A stretch of 64,000 bases of DNA from the NCBI GenBank assembly GCA_017499595.2, contig CM039002.1, positions 2,790,001 through 2,854,000 on the forward strand, in the 5' to 3' direction. Of the stretch, positions 4,602 through 60,699 are shown one piece after another. Each line of letters starts with the position of its first letter. Position 1 is the stretch's first letter. The notes beneath the pieces were generated by a model. That model did not search any database. It was not told where the DNA came from and worked only from the letters and a program-made list of their open reading frames with translations. This DNA is from Psilocybe cubensis (taxonomy: Eukaryota). Both the position numbers and the translations under genes were made by a program.

Positions 4602-5171
4602 TCAGGGTTTCTCTGTTCCATCTTCGGGTGTAACTGGCTTCCACACGTCCTTCGCGGCATGCATAAGCTCGTACAACTGACCGAGCTGCTCTGGGGACAT
4701 CTAAGGATGGGGATATTAATAAAGGGTGCGACTCGAAAGGTTGGATTACACACCTTTTCAAAAACTGTGGGATCCAGCCGTTTCCCTTTGTAATCTTCGT
4801 TAGGTTTTGTGGGTAACTCGTCGAGGTACATTTTCCATTGCGAAAGGAATCCCATGATGTGTACGGGGTTCGTGACTTCTTTGTGCCGTCGGAACTCTAT
4901 AACCTGTGTGAGCTTTCGCAGCAGGCCAACCAAGAATATCAACACACCTGACTTGACATAGTCGTCTCCCAAACTACGCATATCTGATGGCAAATTACGG
5001 TGTGAACGCAGCAGTCGTCTGTACAGTCTGCTGCAAATGTCAGCCCACGCTACCTCGACAACTAGATCCGGAGGCGTACGGAATAGGAGGGTATAACATT
5101 GCACTGGCGTCCGTCAGATTCAGAGGTGCCTTCGACACAGATTCCGCCAGCCTAATTAAAGTAGATCGCAT
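4602..5171 (-). CDS. SDH7: Succinate dehydrogenase assembly factor 3 (ACN9/SDH7, LYR family), multi-exon
   Basis: [19 protein letters not shown]...PPIP / [26 protein letters not shown] / [28 protein letters not shown]...[12 protein letters not shown]; the LYR motif with GD.YVK.EFR.HK is characteristic of ACN9/SDHAF3. Confidence 0.9.
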
Positions 5172-6114
5172 TTTGAAGTAAAGTTGTTGACACGGTGGTG
5201 AGCGCAAGAATTCGGGAGCGACTAGGTCCGTGAGGAATTCTGGCGGAGAATGAAAACTTGAGATTCGGCTGATTTCGGCGCGCGAAATCAGACTTGTACT
5301 GTGGGCAAATGTGGCTGTGTTGCGGCACCTCGGCTCAAAGATAACAGGCACTTGCTCAAATTTTAAAAGTACTGCCGTGTATATAAACCTTTTATATACC
5401 TAAATATATGTTTTTTTAAAAGACTAAGCTCGGGTTCTGCCGGGCAGACGCGCCCTTTCTGGCTCAACAAATTTGATTTCCGCTCGGTTTCAAATTTGTG
5501 ACCTTCACTGGGAATAAGATAACTGGCTGGTTTTAAGCTTTTTGTGGCAGAAGCTGGCAAGTTATTTTATCATGAGTATATAGTGGTTTTCCTATCAGTT
5601 AATTTTACTTAAAATGGATGCAAATACAGGCCTTTATTTTGAAACGTGATCGGTCTGTTAAATCACATGACATGAACACATCCGACGCGACCGAGACACG
5701 ACTGCGACTACCTTGGATCGAAAAGGCGGACACACGCCAGGACACGCCAAAAAGCACTATATTGGCATATGATCAACAATTTTCTTGGGATTTGGAAGTG
5801 TTAGGTTCTAATTTCATGATCCACATTTTTCAGCAAATCCTGACATGAAGCAGAGCTTGGTACCATACACACCCCAAATGGACTGTCTTTGGGAGTAACT
5901 CCATGCTCAAGAAATGAAAGTTTATCGGGACTAATAATATCCGCACAATGCTCACCGTATTGGTACTCCTTTAGATATCTCCATTATTGTGCCATATTCA
6001 CATTTAATTGGGCCATATCTTGTTATTGCTACCTTGAAGGATAGCTATGTGTCCCTCTTCTAGGTAATTCTGCGTATATTAAATGCCGTTATGATCTATA
6101 ACACCGTAAAGCAG

Positions 6115-48220: not shown

Positions 48221-50882
48221 CTATTGAGACAGCTGTTTGATCTTGACGATGATCGCTGCGAAGAAATAGCCATCAGCATATTGACCTTGGAGACATCGCA
48301 GGAAAATGAAGTCACTCACATTGAGGATCAAGGTTCTGGTATGGAATTTGTTCCCATAACCCCCCACAGCCTGGAAAAAATCGCATCAAATTTTGTTAGA
48401 CAGGACACTCTGTGAGAGGACCTACCCTCTTTGGTGGTACCCATGTAGCCGTACTTCGGCGTCAGCTGGCGTTCCAGGAGCCATGTGCCATATTTAGACC
48501 CAAGCTACAAATGATTGAAAATGAGTGTCGCTATAATTTGAACTCTGATATTCATACCCCCGTCTTTTGGTTAAATGATTCGACAACCAATACGAAAGGG
48601 CTTGTTCCGATCTTTCTTGTCATCTATGACACACCCATATGTTTCAGTTTGTGATGTAGGAGGGTCAAAAAGAGATACCTGTTCATCCACAACATTCAAA
48701 CAGGGCTTGTTCACCAGACCCACATCCAATCCTTGTTCTCTACAGCGCAAGACAGCATCGAGAGACCTATAAAGCATCTCTCCAAAGCTAACCACGTATC
48801 CAGCCTTACCCTCCAAGATAAGGTCATCCTTGCCAGGAACGAATTCATAGTCATCTTCGAAGAACCTCGTCTTGCCGTCGGGTTTGAGGATCCAAGGCAC
48901 CTTGGACCGTGTGGAGAAAATGAACCTCAGGCCACGTTCAAAAAAGACGCGCTTGACGATGGCGACCATTTGTGCAGGATCAGCCGGGAAGTAGAGGAAA
49001 GATTGTACGTCAGATAAACCATTGTCGGCATACATGTTATTGACACCTAATCCACGATTAATATTCGTCCAATTAAGTCAAATTTAAGAACCACACCAAA
49101 GTGACATGTATTGTCGGCCTTTTCAATTAATGTCAGTACACGTTGCACCAGCGATCAATGAAAAACCGACCATCTTAGTTTTGAAAGAAGCGAATAATTT
49201 GTTAGAAAATAATATTTATGAAGAAAAAGGACAAACCTCATCAACTAGAATACGCGAATTTGTTTAGCAACGTGCTCACCTCTTAATGCAAAGAATATAC
49301 ATTTATACTTACCTCCGGAATGGGAGAAATGACTGAGAACATTGCAATTGTTCAAACGCGCCATAGTGATTTCTGAAACCACCATTTCGAGGAAAGCTGA
49401 GAAAGTTGAGAATACTCCAAATTTGTCAGGTGCGAAACCAAAACCGGCCGCGGCAGAGAAATTGCCTCGTTCCATGATACCGGAGGGGACGAACACTTCA
49501 GGATGCTTTTGATGGATGACCTTCAAACCGGTTGAGCCTTCGAGATCACCTGAGACCGATATGTTAGAATCAGAATATGAGGCAAAGTCACGGAACGCAC
49601 TATCGATGACCATGACCTTCTTCGCCGCCTCTTCCTTGCTAAGGGTATCCAAAACCATGTTAACAGCTTCTCCGAAAATGACACGATTTGCTCCGACTTC
49701 TTTGGTGGAACCAGAGTATATGTATGGATTTGGGACGGGCTTGATGTTATCGTATATCGAGGAGAAGTTGCTTAATCCTCTCTTTTCCAAATATTTGACT
49801 GCCGCTTTGATAGGGATTACATCGTGTCCATGAGAGCTTCCTTCAATATCTGGAATGCCAGGAGCCATGACTCGCTTGGCAATAACTGAAATGACGTTAA
49901 CAACACGAACAAGAGGAAAAATGAAACATTTTCCTACCCGCCGCTGGACCATTGTGCGTCACGATAGCGCTAATACCGCCCCATAGCTCATCGAGGTCCT
50001 CACCTTGCACGGTTACGACTTTCAAACCGTGGCCCGCCAAAGTGTTGGTGACGTCGTATCCCGGGAGATATTGCGATGGGTGCCCGGCGATAGTTACGTC
50101 ATTGTCATCGATGAGGAGCTTGACGTTCAACCCTTGCGCAACAGCGAGTCTGGCGGCTTCCGCGTCGTTGCCCTCTTGCTGCGAGCCGTCGGAACCCAGG
50201 CAGAATACGGTCTTGTCGCGATTGGCGAGGGCGACGCCGTTGACAAGAGGCCTGAGTGACCAATGAACAAACTGCTTATCATGGCGGGGTCATGTCACAT
50301 ACCACATGTGGCCGAGACGTCCTGAAGAAAACTTGACGCCAGGAGTCAAGCCCAGCTCGGGGTGGCCTGGAAGTTTGGAGTTCGCTTCTCGATAATGAAG
50401 GAGGTGCTCGGCGGGAAGCGACCCCTCGAGGGTGGCGAGAATGTATTGAGTAGCCACACGGTGTCCTGCAGCACGACGTCATATCGCGAAGAGCTTCCGA
50501 TGCAAAACACACGCATACCTGCTTCGTCGAATACAACGGGATAAAAGTCCTTGGAATGCTCGAACAGTGCTAGAAGAATGCAGACCTCTGGAACGGTGTC
50601 ATATGCACCGCCTATGATATTGTCAGCCAGTGGACACACTCGCGGAGTAAGTTAGGCTCGCCTGTGTGTCCACTAACACCTCGCGCGGCGCCAGTGGCTG
50701 TAAACACCACAATGGCGTCCCGCAGGAGTTGTATATTCGCCTGCAAGTCAGCCTTTTGCTCGGCAGTGAGGGTCGGGTTGTGGGGGTCAAGAGACAACCT
50801 ACACGAAATTAGAAGAAGAAAATTGGGATGTGAAAACACTAAACTTTTTAAACTGCTTGAGGTCGATAGGAAATTCTGCCAT
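48221..50882 (-). CDS. Transketolase-like thiamine diphosphate-dependent enzyme, multi-exon
   Basis: GAARGVSGHTGG, PGHPELGLTPGVKFSSGRLGHMW, CLGSDGSQQEGNDAEAA (ThDP motif), DLEGSTGL, GIMERGNFSAAAG, FSHSG, YFPADP; ends IKQLSQ*. Confidence 0.9.
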
Positions 50883-51962
50883 GGTAGTGGTGGTGTAAGA
50901 TAAAGATCGGAATGGAATCAAGAATAGTGGAGCAAGCACGCTTTAAGAGGAAACCACATAGTCTGAAAGTGGACATACACTTCCCCCGATCCACCCGCTT
51001 GCACTCCCATACAAAAATGATGAGCGCGGCTGTATCCCTTCACGACCTACATGAAATGCGGATCCGCCTTTTCCATGGTTGAAAATGACCGAGGCGAACA
51101 CCGATACAAAGAAAGATGAATTGGTTTTCTTGCGGGAGACGAGCACGAAGTCATAAATTTGCACACCCAAAATATGCTAAAAAGGGCTAGAAAAGGCTTC
51201 ACCACACTGCAAGCGAGTTATTATATGTGAATGCATCGATTGAGCTACTGTACGACATGGAATATTTAGGAGGAAATACGATACACAGACCATTAATTAA
51301 ACCGTGAACCCTGTGATAACCACCCTGTTCCCAAAAGCGTTGTGCCACGTCCCATCCACCAACTTCTACTTTTACGCACGTTTGTGGAAAGAGATAGAAC
51401 TTTCCCATTGGTTATCTGTGAAATGACATGTTAATTCGGATCCGAAAAATAGAATAGACAAGCATAAAGGAAGAAAAAAAATCAGAGAACCGGGAATCGA
51501 CTTGGGTCTCTCCCGAAGGGGCCCTTCAGACGGCACTTCCTAAAGCTTTCGGTTTGAAATCGTCATAGATAATGAAAAGCAAAAGTAGAAACCAAATTTT
51601 GATGGAGAAGAACTTACATCGTCCAGATCGTCATCACCGTCGTCGTCGTCGTCCAGTGCGAAAGAATACAGAAAGATTTCTGTGAAAAATTGCTGAAAAA
51701 AAAGGTTCAGAGTCCGACATACTTTAAACTCCGATTTGTCAGGTGACCGACTGGCGCTCAGCGCTGAGAGCGACTCTGAGCCAACTCTGAGCGACTCATT
51801 GGCAACTCGGTCGTATTTTGGAGTCTACGCTCAACCAACACCATTTTACATGAAAGTACTCTGAAGCATTCATGGATATCAAATATTTATATTAATACAA
51901 ATAGTGACAAACATGTCCGTACTGTAGCATACTGTGACAATCATAAATCTAGCGAGATAAAT

Positions 51963-52941
51963 TCAACGAAGACTGAGAGAAAGATGGCATGCCCACATTG
52001 AGGTCCACTGAAATCTCAGTTTGTAAAATTTGAACAAACCTGGCAGGAGGTCAACCCTTCGATAAATTAATTTTGTATTTGGGTTTATCGGACTGGACAG
52101 CGGATGTCTTGCCTTCCATGCCTTTGAAATGCGATCTTGCGCCTTTGAAGTGGATATAAACAGTCTGAAATCTCCCTCTGTGAGCGGTTGACAGAAATAA
52201 TAGCATATAGAATCCAAGACGTCGCCCAAGCTAATCGGACCGTGTTGATTGTTGACAACAATTGGGCCCCAAGCTTTCATAATCCAAGCCAGCTCGCTCT
52301 GGTCAAAATCAATCATCGCAACCTTGATATTCTCCGGAAGAGCTGGAGCTTTGAATGGTGGATGATACAGAATATCTCCGTCGGCGACTTTAGCTGTGCG
52401 CGGGCTGGTGCGCAAGTCCCATACCATTTCTCCGCTAGTGAGGGTCTCGTCAATAAATTGACTTTCTAAGCTTTGATGGCATCGAGGTCGGTGGGATTTT
52501 GATTTGTGCCTTTTGGTTTCAGGGGACATTGCACCACTCTTGGAAGATTTAGATAACAATAACGCTCTTTTCTCAGGTGTACGTGGAGGTTCTTGCTTAT
52601 GGCACCAGTCACCCAGTGACAATGCTTGAGGCGAACTGTATGAGTCGGTATCCGCGCACTGACTAAACTGATCGTGGGGGATGTGATATGGCGAGCTGTA
52701 TGCCGGAGGGGAATCAGCAAAACTATTCCAAAGTGCATCCCTGTATTCGACGTAGTCCTGCTGGGCTGTTCTCTCTGCCGACGTGTTTCTTTGATAAGGT
52801 CAAACTCCATCATATCAATAAGATTAGGCTATTACCTTGTTTAATGTAAGGGTATAAGTATTTCTCTCGGTTGTACGGGTACATAGGAGCGTGGTTCAGA
52901 TAACTTGAACTCCAGGCTGTCCGTACATTGAGTGTGTCCAT
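51963..52941 (-). CDS. Mushroom-type hypothetical protein with C-terminal DUF6699-like domain
   Basis: MVWDLRTSP, WGPIVV..GPISLGDVLDSICYYFCQPLT, RRVDLL..LFKFYKL motifs; 5' exons inferred. Confidence 0.55.
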
Positions 52942-53498
52942 TATTGAGGGATGTGTGGGCGTTGTGGTGGGCGTATGAGTGGGTTTTGAAGAGAACGAGA
53001 TGGTGTCGTTAGTTAGATTTAGAAGGATTATATAGTTTAAGCACTAAATGTTCGGATACCGTACACGCCAGGCGACCGTTACTGCGAATAACAACGAGCG
53101 CCTAATCAAGCCATCTCGACGTGAGCTGATCACAAGCATGGTGCAATAGCCTAAACTTCGCTCCGTTAAACAATGGAATATTCACACTTTGCTAGAGTTA
53201 CCTTGTAATGGGCAAGGTCGTTAAGGGTACATGCCGTCCATGTCAAATCGCATCTGCCATCTTTCGCCCACAACCCATAGCCGACAACCCACAGAGAAAA
53301 AAGAACAAAGACCGGCAAGTTATTGCCGAGTCTATAAATGACTTTGCGGCAAACAGCGAATTTGATCATGACTTTGAAATTCGACGGTGGCCGGTTCTTC
53401 GCAGGCCTCATCATGGGTTCACTCTCAATTGTTTCTTGGAATCATTCCTCTCCTAGTTCGTCCTCTAAATAACGCAAGAATCTTGTTATTAATTTTCA

Positions 53499-55237
53499 AT
53501 GGAAAACGCAACAACTTCTAGGAATCTTGGTAACATTGTTGAAATCGTCAATGAAGCCTATAGCGACCGTGCAAGGCAGGGTGCCCCAGTAGACTGTAAG
53601 TCGGCGCTCTACGTCTTTCTAGCTGTCTATAATAACGAAATATTAGATGCCAACAAAGTAGCTGAGGCATTTGGATACACGGAAGAACAACTGCGTTCAG
53701 TGCCCGAGAATGCACACATGGGGTTGAGCTGTGGTAACCCAGTCGCCGCTGCTACAATCAAGGAGGTAAGAGGAAGATCACCACTTCAAAGTAGGTCGTT
53801 ATTAAGCTTGAATGTAGGGAGAAACCGTAGTCGATCTTGGATCGGGGGGTGGAATCGATGTTTTGCTCGCTGCAGATAAAGTAGGGCCGACCGGGAAAGC
53901 GATTGGCCTTGATATGTCCCAGGTACATTGTATTTGAATCTATTTTATAACACCTTCTAATTTGCCCTTGATACGCAGGACATGATATCTCTAGCTCGTA
54001 AGAATGCTGCAAAGAAGGGCCTCAAACCTCCTCAGGTTGCTTTCGTGCAAGCACTGTTAACTGAGCCCCTTCCTATTGAGCCCGATTCAGTAGATTGTAT
54101 TCTGTCCAACTGTGTCATCAATCTTTTACCGTTTGACGGCAAGGCTCATCTTCTGAAGGAGGTGCACCGTATACTGAAGCCCGGAGGAAGGATCGTCCTC
54201 GATGACGTTTGTTTTGTCGTCCATCACGACTTATGACACGTTATCTAACAATTCGCACGTAGATCATTGCAAAGAAGGAGCTCCCGGGATATATCAAAGA
54301 TGATCTCGCATCGTATGTCGGATGTATCTCAGGTGCTCTGCTTCTGGAGCAGTACAAATCACTCTTGAACGATGCTGGTTTTTCAGGCAAGTCTTATATT
54401 TCCACAGTTCTTTTCTTCATCTTTTCGAACTATTGTTTTAGATGTACTTTTCGTCGACAACAAGAGTGATCTCAGTGTTTACTACCAGCAGTCTGATAGT
54501 AACAGCGGTTGTAGCACCACAACTACAGGCTGTTGCACACCCGCACCTCGGGGATCCAAAGCACAAAGGCCAAGTTACGATGTAAATGAGTGGGCCGGTG
54601 AGTTTTCTCTTGAAGCTCCCTTGAATCACATATCTCAGTTTCATTAGCATCATATCAGATTTACGCTAAGAAAGAAGGAGGCCCCGTCCCCAATCCACCA
54701 ACGGCATTGCTCCGCTGGTGGGACGCATACCCTACCGTAAAATCATCTCCAGCATCCATGACAGCGGAGGAAGTAGCATCACTCATACGCGGTGAGGGAG
54801 ATGCAGGCGAATTTGCAGTTATTGATGTTCGCAGGAATGATCATGCTGTATGTATAAATATCAAACTATACCTTCTCCCCATTTCACAAACAACTTTTAC
54901 CTATAAGGGGGGCCATGTCAGAGGCAGCCACAACCACCACGCCCAAACATTCTTCGACGAACTCCCGGCCTTCTATGAGCGATTTAAGGATACAAAGAAA
55001 GTCATTTTCTACTGCCAAAGCTCAAATGGCAGAGGGCCTCGATGCGCTGGATGGTAAGCCACCCCAATAATATAAGCAGTTATTTAACGCTTACTTTCTT
55101 GGATTTCAAGGTACCAGGACTATCTAAATTCCAAAGCTAACCATGATAATAAATCGACCGCCTACGTTTTAAAAGGCGGGATCAAAAACTGGCTTTCTAA
55201 ATTCGAAGGACAGGAGGATTTGGTAGACGCCGATTGA
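53499..55237 (+). CDS. Arsenite S-adenosylmethionine methyltransferase (ArsM/AS3MT-like) fused to a C-terminal Acr2/Cdc25-type rhodanese domain
   Basis: [19 protein letters not shown] (SAM motif I), [25 protein letters not shown]; intron 54598-54647 gives in-frame readthrough into [42 protein letters not shown]. Confidence 0.88.
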
Positions 55238-55770
55238 GCGTCCTGGCCACCTATAGGCTGTGGTATATAAACTATATATATTGGCTCGCTATACTCTGCA
55301 ACAATATGATCACGCCACGATATCTTGGAGAGAACATATAAAATACCAAAAACTTGTTGTGGCCTTACGAGTCGGTTCAAACCTGTCGGACTGGTCCCTC
55401 TTGAAGAGGATAGGACGCTGGGGAAATTCCTTGTTGCTCTGACAGCATAGCAACATTCAATGGCGAGTCCTGGTCAAAGCAGAAGAGTGGGTGGTTCATT
55501 GTCGCTAGGTTACCCCAGAAATGGAGCACCATGTATGGCCAGAGGCAACCTGAATGGCAAGGCCTGTAAGTGGCGTCTTGATGTTTGAAAATCTATAAAA
55601 CATGACAATGTAGATTGCAAGACTCAGGATCAAAACCGATTGCATCGCAACCAAGTCTGGAGGAATATTCATCTCTCTGTCGCAGATTCGTCACTCCAGC
55701 GAACGATGGATCTCAGTCTCTCCCAAGTTCCCGGTCTGAGACAAGTGACACCTACTTCTTCCCTGCTGAT

Positions 55771-56535
55771 ATGGATATAATGGCAAACCGGATTGATGAT
55801 TCGTCTTTTGATTCTCTAGCGCTTTCCGATACAGACTCATGCGCGTCACAGCTTCCCACCCCAGTCGACGACGATTTTTTCACCCCAAAAGACAGTGTCG
55901 AGTCTCTCGCTGTTCAGGGCTGGACTGATGATTTCGACGATGGTGATAGCTTTCTAATCTCTGGGGTCGTATGGGATCAAGCGTCGGGGCAGCATCTCCT
56001 CACGGCACCACGTCAAGTTTCTCGAAAGTCGTTCTACGACTACTACTACCCGCCATTGCAACCGAATCACTGGCAAGAATACTATCGTGAACAAGAAAGG
56101 CTCAATGTCAAATCTGACAACAGATTCTCGGGTAAGGCCTCTGTGGCAGCACCGTCTGACTCTGAACCCGGACCGATTCCTCGCGTGGACCTTTCCGCAG
56201 CATACATCTCGTCAGATGGTGTCGAGCAAAGCAATGAGGTTGAGGATCTGAACCCTGATCCTGAATGTGTATACACGGTAAGCCGCAGAAGCGATGGGTT
56301 GCTTTGGTACCAGTGCAAGACATGTCCCAACCGGGGCACTGACAGGCGCTCTGATATGGTGCGCCATGCTAAAACCAGGCTGCATAAAGCTGAGAATTTT
56401 ACATGCACACTCTGCAACATGGAGTATCCTTCAAAGGATGCGTTGGAACGGCACTTCCAAAGAAAGAGTCACCAGTCTCGAGTTGAAAAGAATAAGGCAC
56501 GTTATAACTTGCGAAAACGAGTGGGAAGGAAGTAG
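55771..56535 (+). CDS. C2H2 zinc-finger protein, intronless, paralogue of 42472-43572
   Basis: YQCKTCPNRGTDRRSDMVRHAKTRLH and FTCTLCNMEYPSKDALERHFQRKSH; first in-frame ATG at 55771. Confidence 0.8.
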   Translation: MDIMANRIDDSSFDSLALSDTDSCASQLPTPVDDDFFTPKDSVESLAVQGWTDDFDDGDSFLISGVVWDQASGQHLLTAPRQVSRKSFYDYYYPPLQPNHWQEYYREQERLNVKSDNRFSGKASVAAPSDSEPGPIPRVDLSAAYISSDGVEQSNEVEDLNPDPECVYTVSRRSDGLLWYQCKTCPNRGTDRRSDMVRHAKTRLHKAENFTCTLCNMEYPSKDALERHFQRKSHQSRVEKNKARYNLRKRVGRK

Positions 56536-58171: not shown

Positions 58172-58510
58172 ACTGTTGTTTTGCATTTTATTTTGGTCAC
58201 CACATGCCAGCGGGTTGCGGGTATACACCGGATTCATTTCCAGGTCAAGTGGACACAGTCCAGCACACCTTCTACTGCTGTCTTGCCTTTTATTTTATTA
58301 CTTTTCTCACAGGTTCTATAGAAGCGAGTACCCACCGGAGTACGGGTGATCCGGTCATTCGTTAGAATCGATGCAATGAAGCAAGGTGCCAGTTCACCTT
58401 CGTTAGGTGTCTTTTTGGTCCAAGGCATATGACTCCTCTTTGGCACATCGCATCGCGGACCGACAACAAGAAATTCAAGTTGAGTGGTGCTACAAATAAA
58501 AGCAGAAGCG

Positions 58511-60699
58511 ATGGATTCCAAGTCCGCTGGCAATCCTCCCTCTCAACGAAATCATTCACTTGTCATCATGTTACTGTCTGCGGTCCTTGTAGCGCTCGCT
58601 AGCTATGCATATCGAGACACCTTGCTTGCTCTGGCTTCTCCGAGTGCTATCTTAGATGCGTCTCAGGCTGCGGATATTGTAGATACTGGGTATGCTAGGT
58701 ATCTGGGCAATCGCTCGTTCCCGAACACTGTTGCTTTTCTGGGTGTTCCGTATGCGGAACCACCGTTGGGAGAACGACGGTTCCGCGCACCTCTTCCTTT
58801 GGACAAGGCTAGGATAGCAAGGGAGGCTCGTGGAAAGGTGGTGGATGTCACCAAGAACCCTGCCTTTTGTATTCAGGGTACCACGGGAGGTCAGTTCAAT
58901 TGCGCATGTTATTAGGGGCCAAATATAGATCTTGAATGCGTTCTGCAGGTGGTGACGCTGGAGGAGCCGGAAGTGAAGATTGTTTGAATGTAAATATCTA
59001 CGCACCTGTTGGTGCAAATCGCGGAAGCAAATGCAAGTCTTTCTTTGCTCTTTCGTTATCATTTAATCTGACGTGACAATCCCAGTGCCGGTGCTCGTGT
59101 ACATTCACGGAGGAGGCGAGCTCAAACCGTCTATATGATCATTGCGTAAACTCACGTTTATACCCTTACCCACAGGATATGTATTTGGGAACCCTGTAAA
59201 CTGGCCTTTCGACCATTGGATTAACCAAAGCCCAAACGTGGTTATCGTCTCGGTGTACTACCGTTTGTCGTCATTTGGATTCCTTGCTTCTCCTGCAATG
59301 CGCGATCCTGCAGTTGGTGACCTGAACGCGGGATTCCTGGACCAGATACAAGCTCTCAAATGGGTCAAAGAGAATATTGCCAGCTTCGGAGGAAACCCAG
59401 ACATGGTCACCATCAATGGTGAAAGTGCTGGGGGAAGCTCAACGGAGTTGCATCTGGTCGCCAATGAAGGCGAAAAACTTTTTAATGCTGCTATTGCACA
59501 GAGCGTGTACAGGACCCCTTTGCCTACCCCGGAACAGCAGGAGGTAAGCCGTGCTGAGTTACAACGGGGCTAAGCGCTGACTCCATCTCCAGCCACTATT
59601 CAATTTCTATGCCAACCACGCTGGATGTGGCACAGGGTCAGCTGCCGATCAGATAGCATGTCTACGGAAAGCCAGCGTTAGCGCGCTGGCTATGGCCCAG
59701 GACGCGGCGGTTACTTCTGCCTTGTAAGACATTTACCTTGTATGATGGACAATTTTTTGGGCTTAAATGAGCAATTTATAGCACCGCGTCAGGATACAAC
59801 ACTTTCCACCCCGTCATTGATGGAAAAACGCTCACGGACTTCCCTACTAAATCGATCTTAGCTGGAAACTTTGCCAAAGTGCCTTTAATTGTTGGGTGGG
59901 TAATTAAATTTTTAGTCCTTTATTGTTCTAATATTTAATGTCAGAGCAACTACCAATGAAACTCTGTCGGGGGGCTCTAGTGTGTCAGGCGCTTTAAAGG
60001 GATTCTTCCCTTCTATCACAGACTCGGATGTCAACGCGCTACTTGATGTAAGCTCGTTTCCTCGAATTTAATTTGCCCATAGCTCATTGGAAAAAGGCGT
60101 ACCCACTCTCTGAATTTTCTTCGTCTCTACAATTCCAAACTATCACAGGAGATGCCGAGCTTAGATGTGCTGTAAGCCTCTTAGAACTCCAGTATAGATT
60201 ATCTCGCTCAAATACCCTGCAGCGCTCCATTCTAGGAACAGAATTCGGGAAAGCCCAGAAATCTTGGACATACAGATATAACCAACCAACTCCGGGAGCC
60301 AACGCTGTATTCCACGCAGCTGAGAACTTCATGATGTTCAAGGGCACTAGCACCGGGTATGTCCACAGATGTCCTTGTTACAACTGATCTCACGCAAATC
60401 TGGATACTAGCTTCAACGGAACCACCACCTTCAACGCGTTGACGCCAACTCAAAACGCATTCGCGCAAGAGTTAATTGCTTACTGGCTATCCTTCGTCCG
60501 AACACACGATCCAAATACGTTTAAGCTATCCCGTTCCCCGACATGGCAGCCTTTTACGACCAAAAACTCGCGGATTGTTCTTCAGGAAGGCCCAGGAGAT
60601 ACAACTACTGTCAGCGGTAGCTTCTTGGAGACACAAGGAACGGAGGAGACGGATCGGTGCAATCTTATCGCAAGCCAGGTGCTGTCCCAGCAAAATTAA
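58511..60699 (+). CDS. Type-B carboxylesterase/lipase (alpha/beta hydrolase) with N-terminal membrane anchor, multi-exon
   Basis: FLGVPYAEPPLGERRFRAP, SEDCLNVNIYAP, YIHGGG, YRLSSFGFL, NAGFLDQIQALKWVKENIASFGGNP, nucleophile elbow GESAGG, FHAAE. Confidence 0.93.

Follow-up and report, generated by a model that had tools for sequence, protein, structure and literature searches.

The window analyzed here, a stretch of 64,000 nucleotides from the Psilocybe cubensis genome (contig CM039002.1, positions 2,790,001 to 2,854,000), contains a gene that raises the question whether a single mushroom protein joins an arsenite methyltransferase (ArsM) to an Acr2-type arsenate reductase and what the two halves would do together. 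According to a 2026 study, the As(V) reductase and the ArsM of mushrooms are still unidentified and represent a key objective (PMC13314834). An earlier study from 2022 speculates on an unknown methyltransferase in Agaricus bisporus (PMC9609160).

Gene structure and transcripts

Removal of eight introns leaves a coding sequence of 1302 nt for 433 residues, with a single stop at 55235-55237. The features of the gene, given in window positions, are as follows.

53499-55237, plus strand: whole gene, nine exons, 433-residue fusion of ArsM and an Acr2-clade domain; based on splice model and contigs
53499-53595, plus strand: exon 1, with ATG and N-terminal helix, cysteine-free; based on splice model and the loose end of an X1 contig
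53647-53765, plus strand: exon 2, with Cys61 (SCGNP, 53727-53741), corresponding to CmArsM Cys72
53818-53922, plus strand: exon 3, with the SAM-binding glycine loop DLGSGGG (53833-53853)
53979-54206, plus strand: exon 4, with Cys147 and Cys152 (SNCVINL, 54105-54125), Cys152 corresponding to CmArsM Cys174
54263-54386, plus strand: exon 5, with Cys204 (GCISGA, 54320-54337), corresponding to CmArsM Cys224
54387-54441, plus strand: GC-AG intron, wrongly placed in the database model P0001; based on contigs
54442-54597, plus strand: exon 6, with the Cys255-Cys256 pair (within 54528-54536) in a flexible loop of pLDDT <50
54598-54647, plus strand: intron directly 5' of the domain junction, spliced in X1 and X2
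54648-54847, plus strand: exon 7, ArsM part, with the final strand of the ArsM fold (54653-54673), the point at which ArsMs without the fusion stop, followed by a short linker
54648-54847, plus strand: exon 7, second part, with a tryptophan motif typical of the Arc2 clade (54716-54733); the rhodanese fold begins here
54908-55053, plus strand: exon 8, with the C-x5-R loop CQSSNGR (Cys379-Arg385, 55013-55033), preceded by Tyr, not His
55111-55237, plus strand: exon 9, end of the rhodanese fold and stop

Introns 1-4 (53596-53646, 53766-53817, 53923-53978 and 54207-54262) and introns 5-8 (54387-54441, of the GC-AG type, 54598-54647, 54848-54907 and 55054-55110) are 50-60 nt long and have a GC content of 0.30-0.41, compared with 0.42-0.54 in the exons. 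Besides the intron at 54598-54647, two introns interrupt the rhodanese domain.

Contigs of run X1 skip seven of the eight introns exactly, four of these also in run X2, and because of this precision the X1/X2 material includes spliced RNA. For intron 1, the support comes from an X1 contig whose loose end of 15 letters matches the end of exon 1. The same stretch is covered unspliced, with zero joints, in runs X3 and X5. X1 and X2 belong to one study and were classed as RNA-type by guess; contigs drop rare variants, and rare isoforms, expression level and transcript ends are outside their scope.

A first-pass annotation, made from the sequence alone, had proposed that the fusion reads in frame and without a stop through intron 54598-54647, and had suggested RNA across the domain junction as a check. 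Spliced contigs of both runs cross this junction. An 848-nt contig (X1) runs from the ArsM exons across the intron and the whole second domain past the stop, and a 757-nt contig (X2) has the same span, from the ArsM exons through the junction to beyond the stop. One transcript and one polypeptide are thus supported. All motifs named by that annotation (SCGNP, DLGSGGG, SNCVINL, GCISGA, the CC pair and CQSSNGR) were also found in place. It could be argued that annotation merged two neighbouring genes or that the transcript is mostly ArsM-only: retention of intron 54598-54647 would lead to a stop after 292 residues, an acceptor at 54658 to a stop after 279, and rare variants would be lost in the contigs. 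However, the intron is spliced in frame in X1 and X2 with reading on past the stop, neither a stop nor an intergenic gap separates the domains, and the identical junction occurs in many genera, so that this explanation is extremely improbable. At an intron-free metagenome locus (L040), one open frame extends over both domains.

P0001, the Psilocybe cubensis entry in the database (430 aa), is identical to our gene model except that three residues are missing at the GC-AG intron; here the contigs favour the 433-residue model. An intron-blind search of the genome with the ArsM half matched this locus only, and the gene is apparently single-copy. In the exon of the CC loop (54497-54542), four clustered C/T differences occur in RNA-type contigs, three of them also in a DNA-type run; these are probably alleles.

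The N-terminal ArsM half

The N-terminal half matches Pfam PF13847 with 100 bits. Among 37 families, the NCBIfam ArsM model NF008823 is the best by 87 bits (228 bits, E 1.2e-67; the cut-off of this prokaryote model is 263 bits). In a PDB sequence search, the five best of 21 matches are ArsM/AS3MT structures, with an E-value of 1.6e-24 for CmArsM. The AlphaFold model of the whole protein (pLDDT 87, pTM 0.85, linker ordered) superimposes on CmArsM (4fr0) with Z 24.0 and an rmsd of 2.8 over 216 aligned residues. The domain therefore has a class I SAM-binding methyltransferase fold, which is nearest to ArsM structures by sequence and by fold.

The domain had been described as a complete ArsM. This holds for the fold and for three cysteines, since Cys61, Cys152 and Cys204 align to CmArsM Cys72, Cys174 and Cys224 in the PDB sequence alignment, but not for the fourth: CmArsM residue 44 aligns to model residue 37-38, no cysteine is found at this position, and the first cysteine is Cys61. 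A three-cysteine ArsM of Aspergillus fumigatus is reportedly active only on MAs(III). At least three of the four conserved ArsM cysteines, the number used as a criterion in PMC5552862, are present, but because the Cys44 equivalent is absent the protein is not a canonical four-cysteine ArsM. Methylation of As(III) has been described for some ArsMs that have three conserved cysteines, or even just two (PMC6950371).

The same pattern was seen in an alignment of 107 fused and 18 unfused ArsMs, from which 18 of 143 proteins were left out for short coverage. The positions of Cys61, Cys152 and Cys204 are kept in 105, 106 and 105 of the 107 fusions, while any cysteine within residues 28-46 is found in five of them. 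The CC loop, disordered in the model, occurs in 95/107 fused and 18/18 unfused ArsMs and, being present in all of the latter, predates the fusion. The ArsM half is 50% identical to an unfused A. fumigatus ArsM over the whole length of that protein, which ends just past the strand preceding the linker.

Two ascomycete ArsMs (P0162 and P0363) have a basic N-terminal extension that looks bZIP-like by eye, without any Pfam match, and may be merged with an upstream regulator gene. P0363 (458 aa) was considered as a second fusion and rejected.

The C-terminal rhodanese domain

The C-terminal domain matches Pfam PF00581 with 41 bits. All 16 matches of a domain-profile search against the PDB are Cdc25, Ych1, AtCDC25 or LmACR2, in the order AtCDC25 (E 1.9e-13), Ych1 (8.7e-11) and LmACR2 (7.1e-9). 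The fold search with the whole protein was filled by methyltransferases, and the second domain was folded via a 63% identical proxy (P0072). In this model, LmACR2 (Z 16.9, rmsd 2.2, 125 residues aligned) ties with Ych1 (Z 16.7, rmsd 2.8, 125 residues), followed by all other rhodaneses at Z 13.8 or less and Cdc25A at 12.0. Because of this tie, the fold alone cannot separate reductase from phosphatase.

Within 50 aligned fusions, the catalytic loop keeps its Cys in 50 and its Arg in 49. The residue before the catalytic Cys is Tyr in 49 and His in one. In Acr2p, the His at this position is dispensable. The loop is glycine-rich and is followed by a second cysteine in 38/50 fusions and by Ser in 12/50. 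Profile, proxy fold and loop alignment agree with the initial assignment as a Cdc25/Acr2-fold rhodanese domain with a C-x5-R loop. Compared with the HC-x5-R signature described in PMC6272796, the His position is taken by Tyr, and for this reason it is not a strict HC-x5-R protein; both residues are found within the clade. The six-residue loop given there for sulfurtransferase rhodaneses does not fit either, as the C-x5-R loop has seven residues.

A tree of 100 domains that passed the coverage filter (149 columns) splits in two groups (SH-aLRT 97.5). All 22 fused domains belong to the Arc2-labelled group, which also contains unfused proteins from chytrids, Sporobolomyces, Saitozyma and ascomycetes; one of them is named 'related to arsenate reductase (Arc2)'. 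Three further proteins of the group are named 'arsenical-resistance protein 2'. These labels are automatic, and S. cerevisiae Acr2p is not among the domains of the tree. The other group has HC-x2-SQ-x-R loops, like Ych1 and AtCDC25. Forcing the three 'arsenical-resistance protein 2' proteins into this Ych1-like group was marginally rejected (AU p 0.044). The P. cubensis genome has a stand-alone gene of the Ych1/AtCDC25 type on contig C6 (about 1448.3-1449.0 kb, minus strand, L012), and the genome searches found no second Arc2-type gene.

Four stand-alone proteins (P0076, P0078, P0084 and P0086) start with Met, yet are nested in the fused clade. This might reflect a later splitting of the fusion, or transcripts that start internally, in some Agaricomycetes. 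Multi-repeat rhodanese proteins were rejected as close relatives, since their top scores come from summed repeats. The protist-type proteins P0168, P0169 and P0178 contain Cdc25-like rhodanese domains in four or five tandem copies; in P0178 (Sulcionema), a Dpy-30 motif is present and the catalytic cysteine is missing.

Genomic context

A metagenome scan for the clade gave 56 loci, which correspond to 40 distinct genes at 95% identity. Ten of these genes are fused to arsM and 30 are unfused or too short to tell. The context count covers the 21 unfused genes for which 700 nt or more of upstream sequence were available: 11 lie head-to-head with ACR3, 15 lie beside ACR3, ArsH or a separate arsM, and six beside none of them, where the ACR3 and ArsH matches are exon-sized and under the curated cut-offs. 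In four cases, an unfused clade member is followed by ArsH. Identity among the ACR3-linked loci is 58-100% (median 70%), and they probably represent one lineage; the ArsH-linked ones are close kin. Because of this relatedness, the number of independent arsenic links is about three or four plus the fusion, not fifteen. By context, the neighbourhood supports the predicted arsenate reductase activity of the clade.

This bears on whether the second domain might lack arsenate reduction and act solely as a phosphatase or as a thiol-redox helper that returns the ArsM cysteines to the reduced state. Such a role would agree with the profile ranking, which puts AtCDC25 and Ych1 over LmACR2, with the glycine-rich loop and the second cysteine behind it, and with the plant and yeast knockouts of ACR2 (AtACR2 and ScACR2), which still reduced arsenate with unchanged arsenic speciation (PMC3412857). 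However, that second cysteine is replaced by Ser in almost a quarter of the aligned fusions, the genome keeps a separate Ych1/AtCDC25-type gene, and the links of the clade to ACR3, ArsH and arsM, fused or not, are hard to reconcile with signalling. We therefore regard a role without arsenate reduction as improbable. Several Acr2-like proteins are reductase and phosphatase both (PMC6272796).

The ACR3-family arsenite exporter of P. cubensis is located on another contig than the fusion (C10:321235-321876, minus strand, L017), and ArsH was not found in this genome by an intron-blind, weak search. The genome also has an LMWPc-family gene. One fusion adjoins ACR3: at the metagenome locus L075 (5373-7887), an agaricomycete-type fusion lies head-to-head with an ACR3 that is 70% identical to the one of P. 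cubensis. Its ArsM half is degenerate, with an altered SAM loop and the third cysteine and CC loop not seen, while the C-x5-R loop is intact.

In the window, a DUF6699 gene (51966-52799, minus strand) is located upstream of the fusion in divergent orientation. At metagenome locus L051, a DUF6699 frame (4806-5660) also lies upstream of the fusion, on the same strand as the fusion, and the neighbourhood is thus partly conserved. Directly downstream, an intron-free frame of about 300 codons (55609-56532, plus strand) has C2H2 zinc fingers at its end. Frames that by eye are of the transketolase type (49900-50900, minus strand) and of the carboxylesterase type (58500-60100, plus strand) are ordinary neighbours. 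A single AP-1-like heptamer at 53486 was rejected as a sign of arsenic control.

Distribution and evolution of the fusion

The fusion is not limited to this genome. Among the longer relatives of the second domain, 65 of 66 carry an ArsM domain, and the second domain is present in 102 of the 120 best among 2524 relatives of the ArsM half. The remaining 18 include, as far as organism names are given, 11 ascomycetes and 3 agaricomycetes (one partial). All named fusion carriers among the relatives listed belong to agaricomycete genera. Besides Agaricales and Boletales, they include Heterobasidion, Sparassis, Gloeophyllum, Sphaerobolus and Sistotremastrum. Edible and wild mushrooms like Agaricus, Cyclocybe, Hypsizygus, Boletus and Suillus are included, as well as Hebeloma cylindrosporum (P0010) and A. 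bisporus (P0033). Judged by these sequences, most mushroom-forming fungi appear to carry the fusion. Armillaria ArsMs have 282 and 287 residues according to rows of a supplement of PMC10199152.

In the ArsM tree, all 107 fused proteins fall into one group (SH-aLRT 71.4), within which three unfused ones are nested. This is compatible with one early fusion and occasional loss, the single origin being weakly supported.

Cys152, Cys204 and the C-x5-R loop are all kept in 115 of 129 fusions. Both ArsM cysteines are lost with an intact C-x5-R loop in three (Pluteus, Astraeus and Pisolithus), the reverse decay, with loss of the loop and ArsM cysteines kept, is seen in two Mycena proteins, and the remaining nine are partial or unclear. 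The ArsM half also looks decayed at the metagenome loci L037, L072 and L075. Since the C-x5-R loop survives decay of the ArsM half, the second domain would be useful by itself. This is in line with a general arsenate reductase and speaks against an obligatory channel.

The first-pass annotation had proposed that one polypeptide channels arsenate reduction into methylation. The one polypeptide is borne out by the contigs; channelling beyond proximity is not, as either half decays alone in some relatives. A strict form of this idea, in which As(III) passes directly from the C-terminal domain to the ArsM site without release, perhaps via the Cys255-Cys256 loop, would agree with the retention of the fusion in most of the best ArsM relatives, with the pTM and the ordered linker, which suggest a fixed arrangement, and with the CC loop in the great majority of fusions. 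However, in addition to the decay in both directions and the ACR3-linked L075, the CC loop is older than the fusion, and mushrooms release much As(III), or retain it in free form (PMC9609160, PMC13314834). Strict channelling is quite unlikely on this evidence.

Predicted function and arsenic physiology

From the analysis as a whole, we consider it rather probable that the protein is a bifunctional arsenic-processing enzyme, consisting of an Acr2-type reductase half and an ArsM half, which arose by an early agaricomycete fusion. A fungal Acr2-type ('Arc2') gene would have been added to a three-cysteine arsM, at its 3' end, early in the Agaricomycetes. As judged from the alignments, the catalytic residues are kept in both halves. 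In the C-terminal domain, As(V) would be bound at the C-x5-R loop (Cys379/Arg385) and reduced to As(III), with glutathione/glutaredoxin as the putative reductant, as in the chemistry described for yeast Acr2p. The N-terminal domain would bind trivalent arsenic at Cys152/Cys204 and Cys61, perhaps with assistance from the mobile pair Cys255-Cys256, and methylate it from SAM, mainly to DMA, as expected from CmArsM chemistry (for both chemistries, PMC6272796 and PMC8618186). The reductase half is probably the ordinary Acr2 of the cell, and its As(III) would reach both the tethered methyltransferase and the unlinked ACR3 pump. The fusion would thus give co-expression and proximity, not a sealed channel. 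Because ACR2 knockouts still reduce arsenate and an LMWPc-family gene exists, the second domain may be dispensable in vivo.

Axenic Hebeloma mycelia on As(V) reduce it, export As(III) and make DMA(V) along with traces of TMAO; in some cultures of H. bulbiferum, DMA(V) accounts for >90% of the arsenic (PMC13314834). This DMA-making genus is also a carrier of the fusion. Against the prediction, A. bisporus has the fusion, yet in a culture that was not sterile As(V) was largely reduced and As(III) and As(V) were hardly methylated, while MAs(V) was for the most part turned into DMAs(V) (PMC9609160).

The findings in A. bisporus would fit a methylarsenate route, in which MAs(III) is the preferred substrate of the three-cysteine ArsM, and the domain fused to it is mainly an MAs(V) reductase that feeds or recycles the intermediate. 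The Cys44 position without cysteine and the rarity of any cysteine in this region of the fusions agree with this, as does the occurrence of ArsH, an MAs(III) oxidase, behind four unfused clade members; no MA(V) was found in the mycelia of two species of Hebeloma (PMC13314834). However, pure Hebeloma cultures form DMA from inorganic As(V) (PMC13314834), three- or two-cysteine ArsMs methylate As(III) (PMC6950371), and ACR3, an exporter of inorganic As(III) only (PMC12860867), is the gene most often found next to clade members. We consider this route unlikely.

A full reduce-and-methylate cycle is a more far-reaching, tentative and somewhat doubtful form of the bifunctional enzyme. Here As(V) and MAs(V), possibly also DMAs(V), would be reduced, and the mobile CC loop would replace Cys44 and pass trivalent arsenic on to the methyltransferase.

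Comparison with known systems

Both halves are known enzyme types, and the fused architecture is already visible in database domain lists, for example under the name 'arsenite methyltransferase'. The ArsM half shares the SAM-binding fold and the equivalents of Cys72/174/224 with CmArsM (PDB 4fr0, 4fsd, 6cx6) and differs in the missing Cys44 equivalent. With the fungal/planctomycete group IV ArsMs, for example Aspergillus fumigatus Cyt19, it shares the CC loop, and it is 50% identical to an A. fumigatus ArsM. In contrast to ascomycete ArsMs, an Acr2-clade domain is added where theirs end. In A. fumigatus, a separate reductase gene named ArsC lies in a cluster with arsM, ArsH and a permease (PMC3289889). 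The reading that this cluster holds an Arc2-type gene was rejected, since the gene listed there is named ArsC.

S. cerevisiae Acr2p, LmACR2 (2j6p) and the fungal 'arsenate reductase (Arc2)' share the rhodanese fold and the C-x5-R loop with the C-terminal domain. The fusion differs from these Acr2p-type reductases in being joined to ArsM, in the Tyr before the catalytic Cys, in an ACR3 that is unlinked in its own genome and in an activity that is predicted. In yeast, ACR2 and ACR3 are arranged divergently. According to a reference title, the two yeast genes are contiguous, and unfused clade members likewise lie beside ACR3. The phosphatases Ych1 (3f4a) and AtCDC25-AtACR2 (1t3k) have the same fold, a tied Z-score (Ych1) and the best profile matches, but this type forms its own clade with the HC-x2-SQ-x-R loop and is a separate gene on contig C6.

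Other ArsM fusions are known, namely ArsM-SelD in Naegleria (PMC5552862) and, by NCBIfam names, the bacterial ArsM-AhpD and ArsM-DUF2284 selenoproteins. Their partners are unrelated to Acr2, and none is named arsenate reductase. Our literature search, with subscription papers largely outside its reach, found no description of a fungal fusion of ArsM with rhodanese/Acr2, nor a relevant study on Serpula himantioides. The passages considered from two ArsM phylogenies (PMC5552862, PMC5398495) do not mention the fusion, and their supplements may list fused sequences. The word 'rhodanese' has no occurrence in PMC13314834, PMC12860867, PMC9609160, PMC10199152 and three supplements of PMC10199152. A published description may exist outside the literature searched.

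Implications

One conserved gene is a candidate for both steps that are missing in mushrooms, As(V) reduction and methylation. Relevant fields are the speciation of arsenic in food, its cycling in soil and remediation by means of one-gene modules for the conversion of As(V) to DMA. If the full cycle were true, the protein would contain a fungal methylarsenate reductase, the DMA and TMAO that build up in mushrooms and are converted there to arsenobetaine would come from it, and variants of the fusion would set the arsenic profile of each species.
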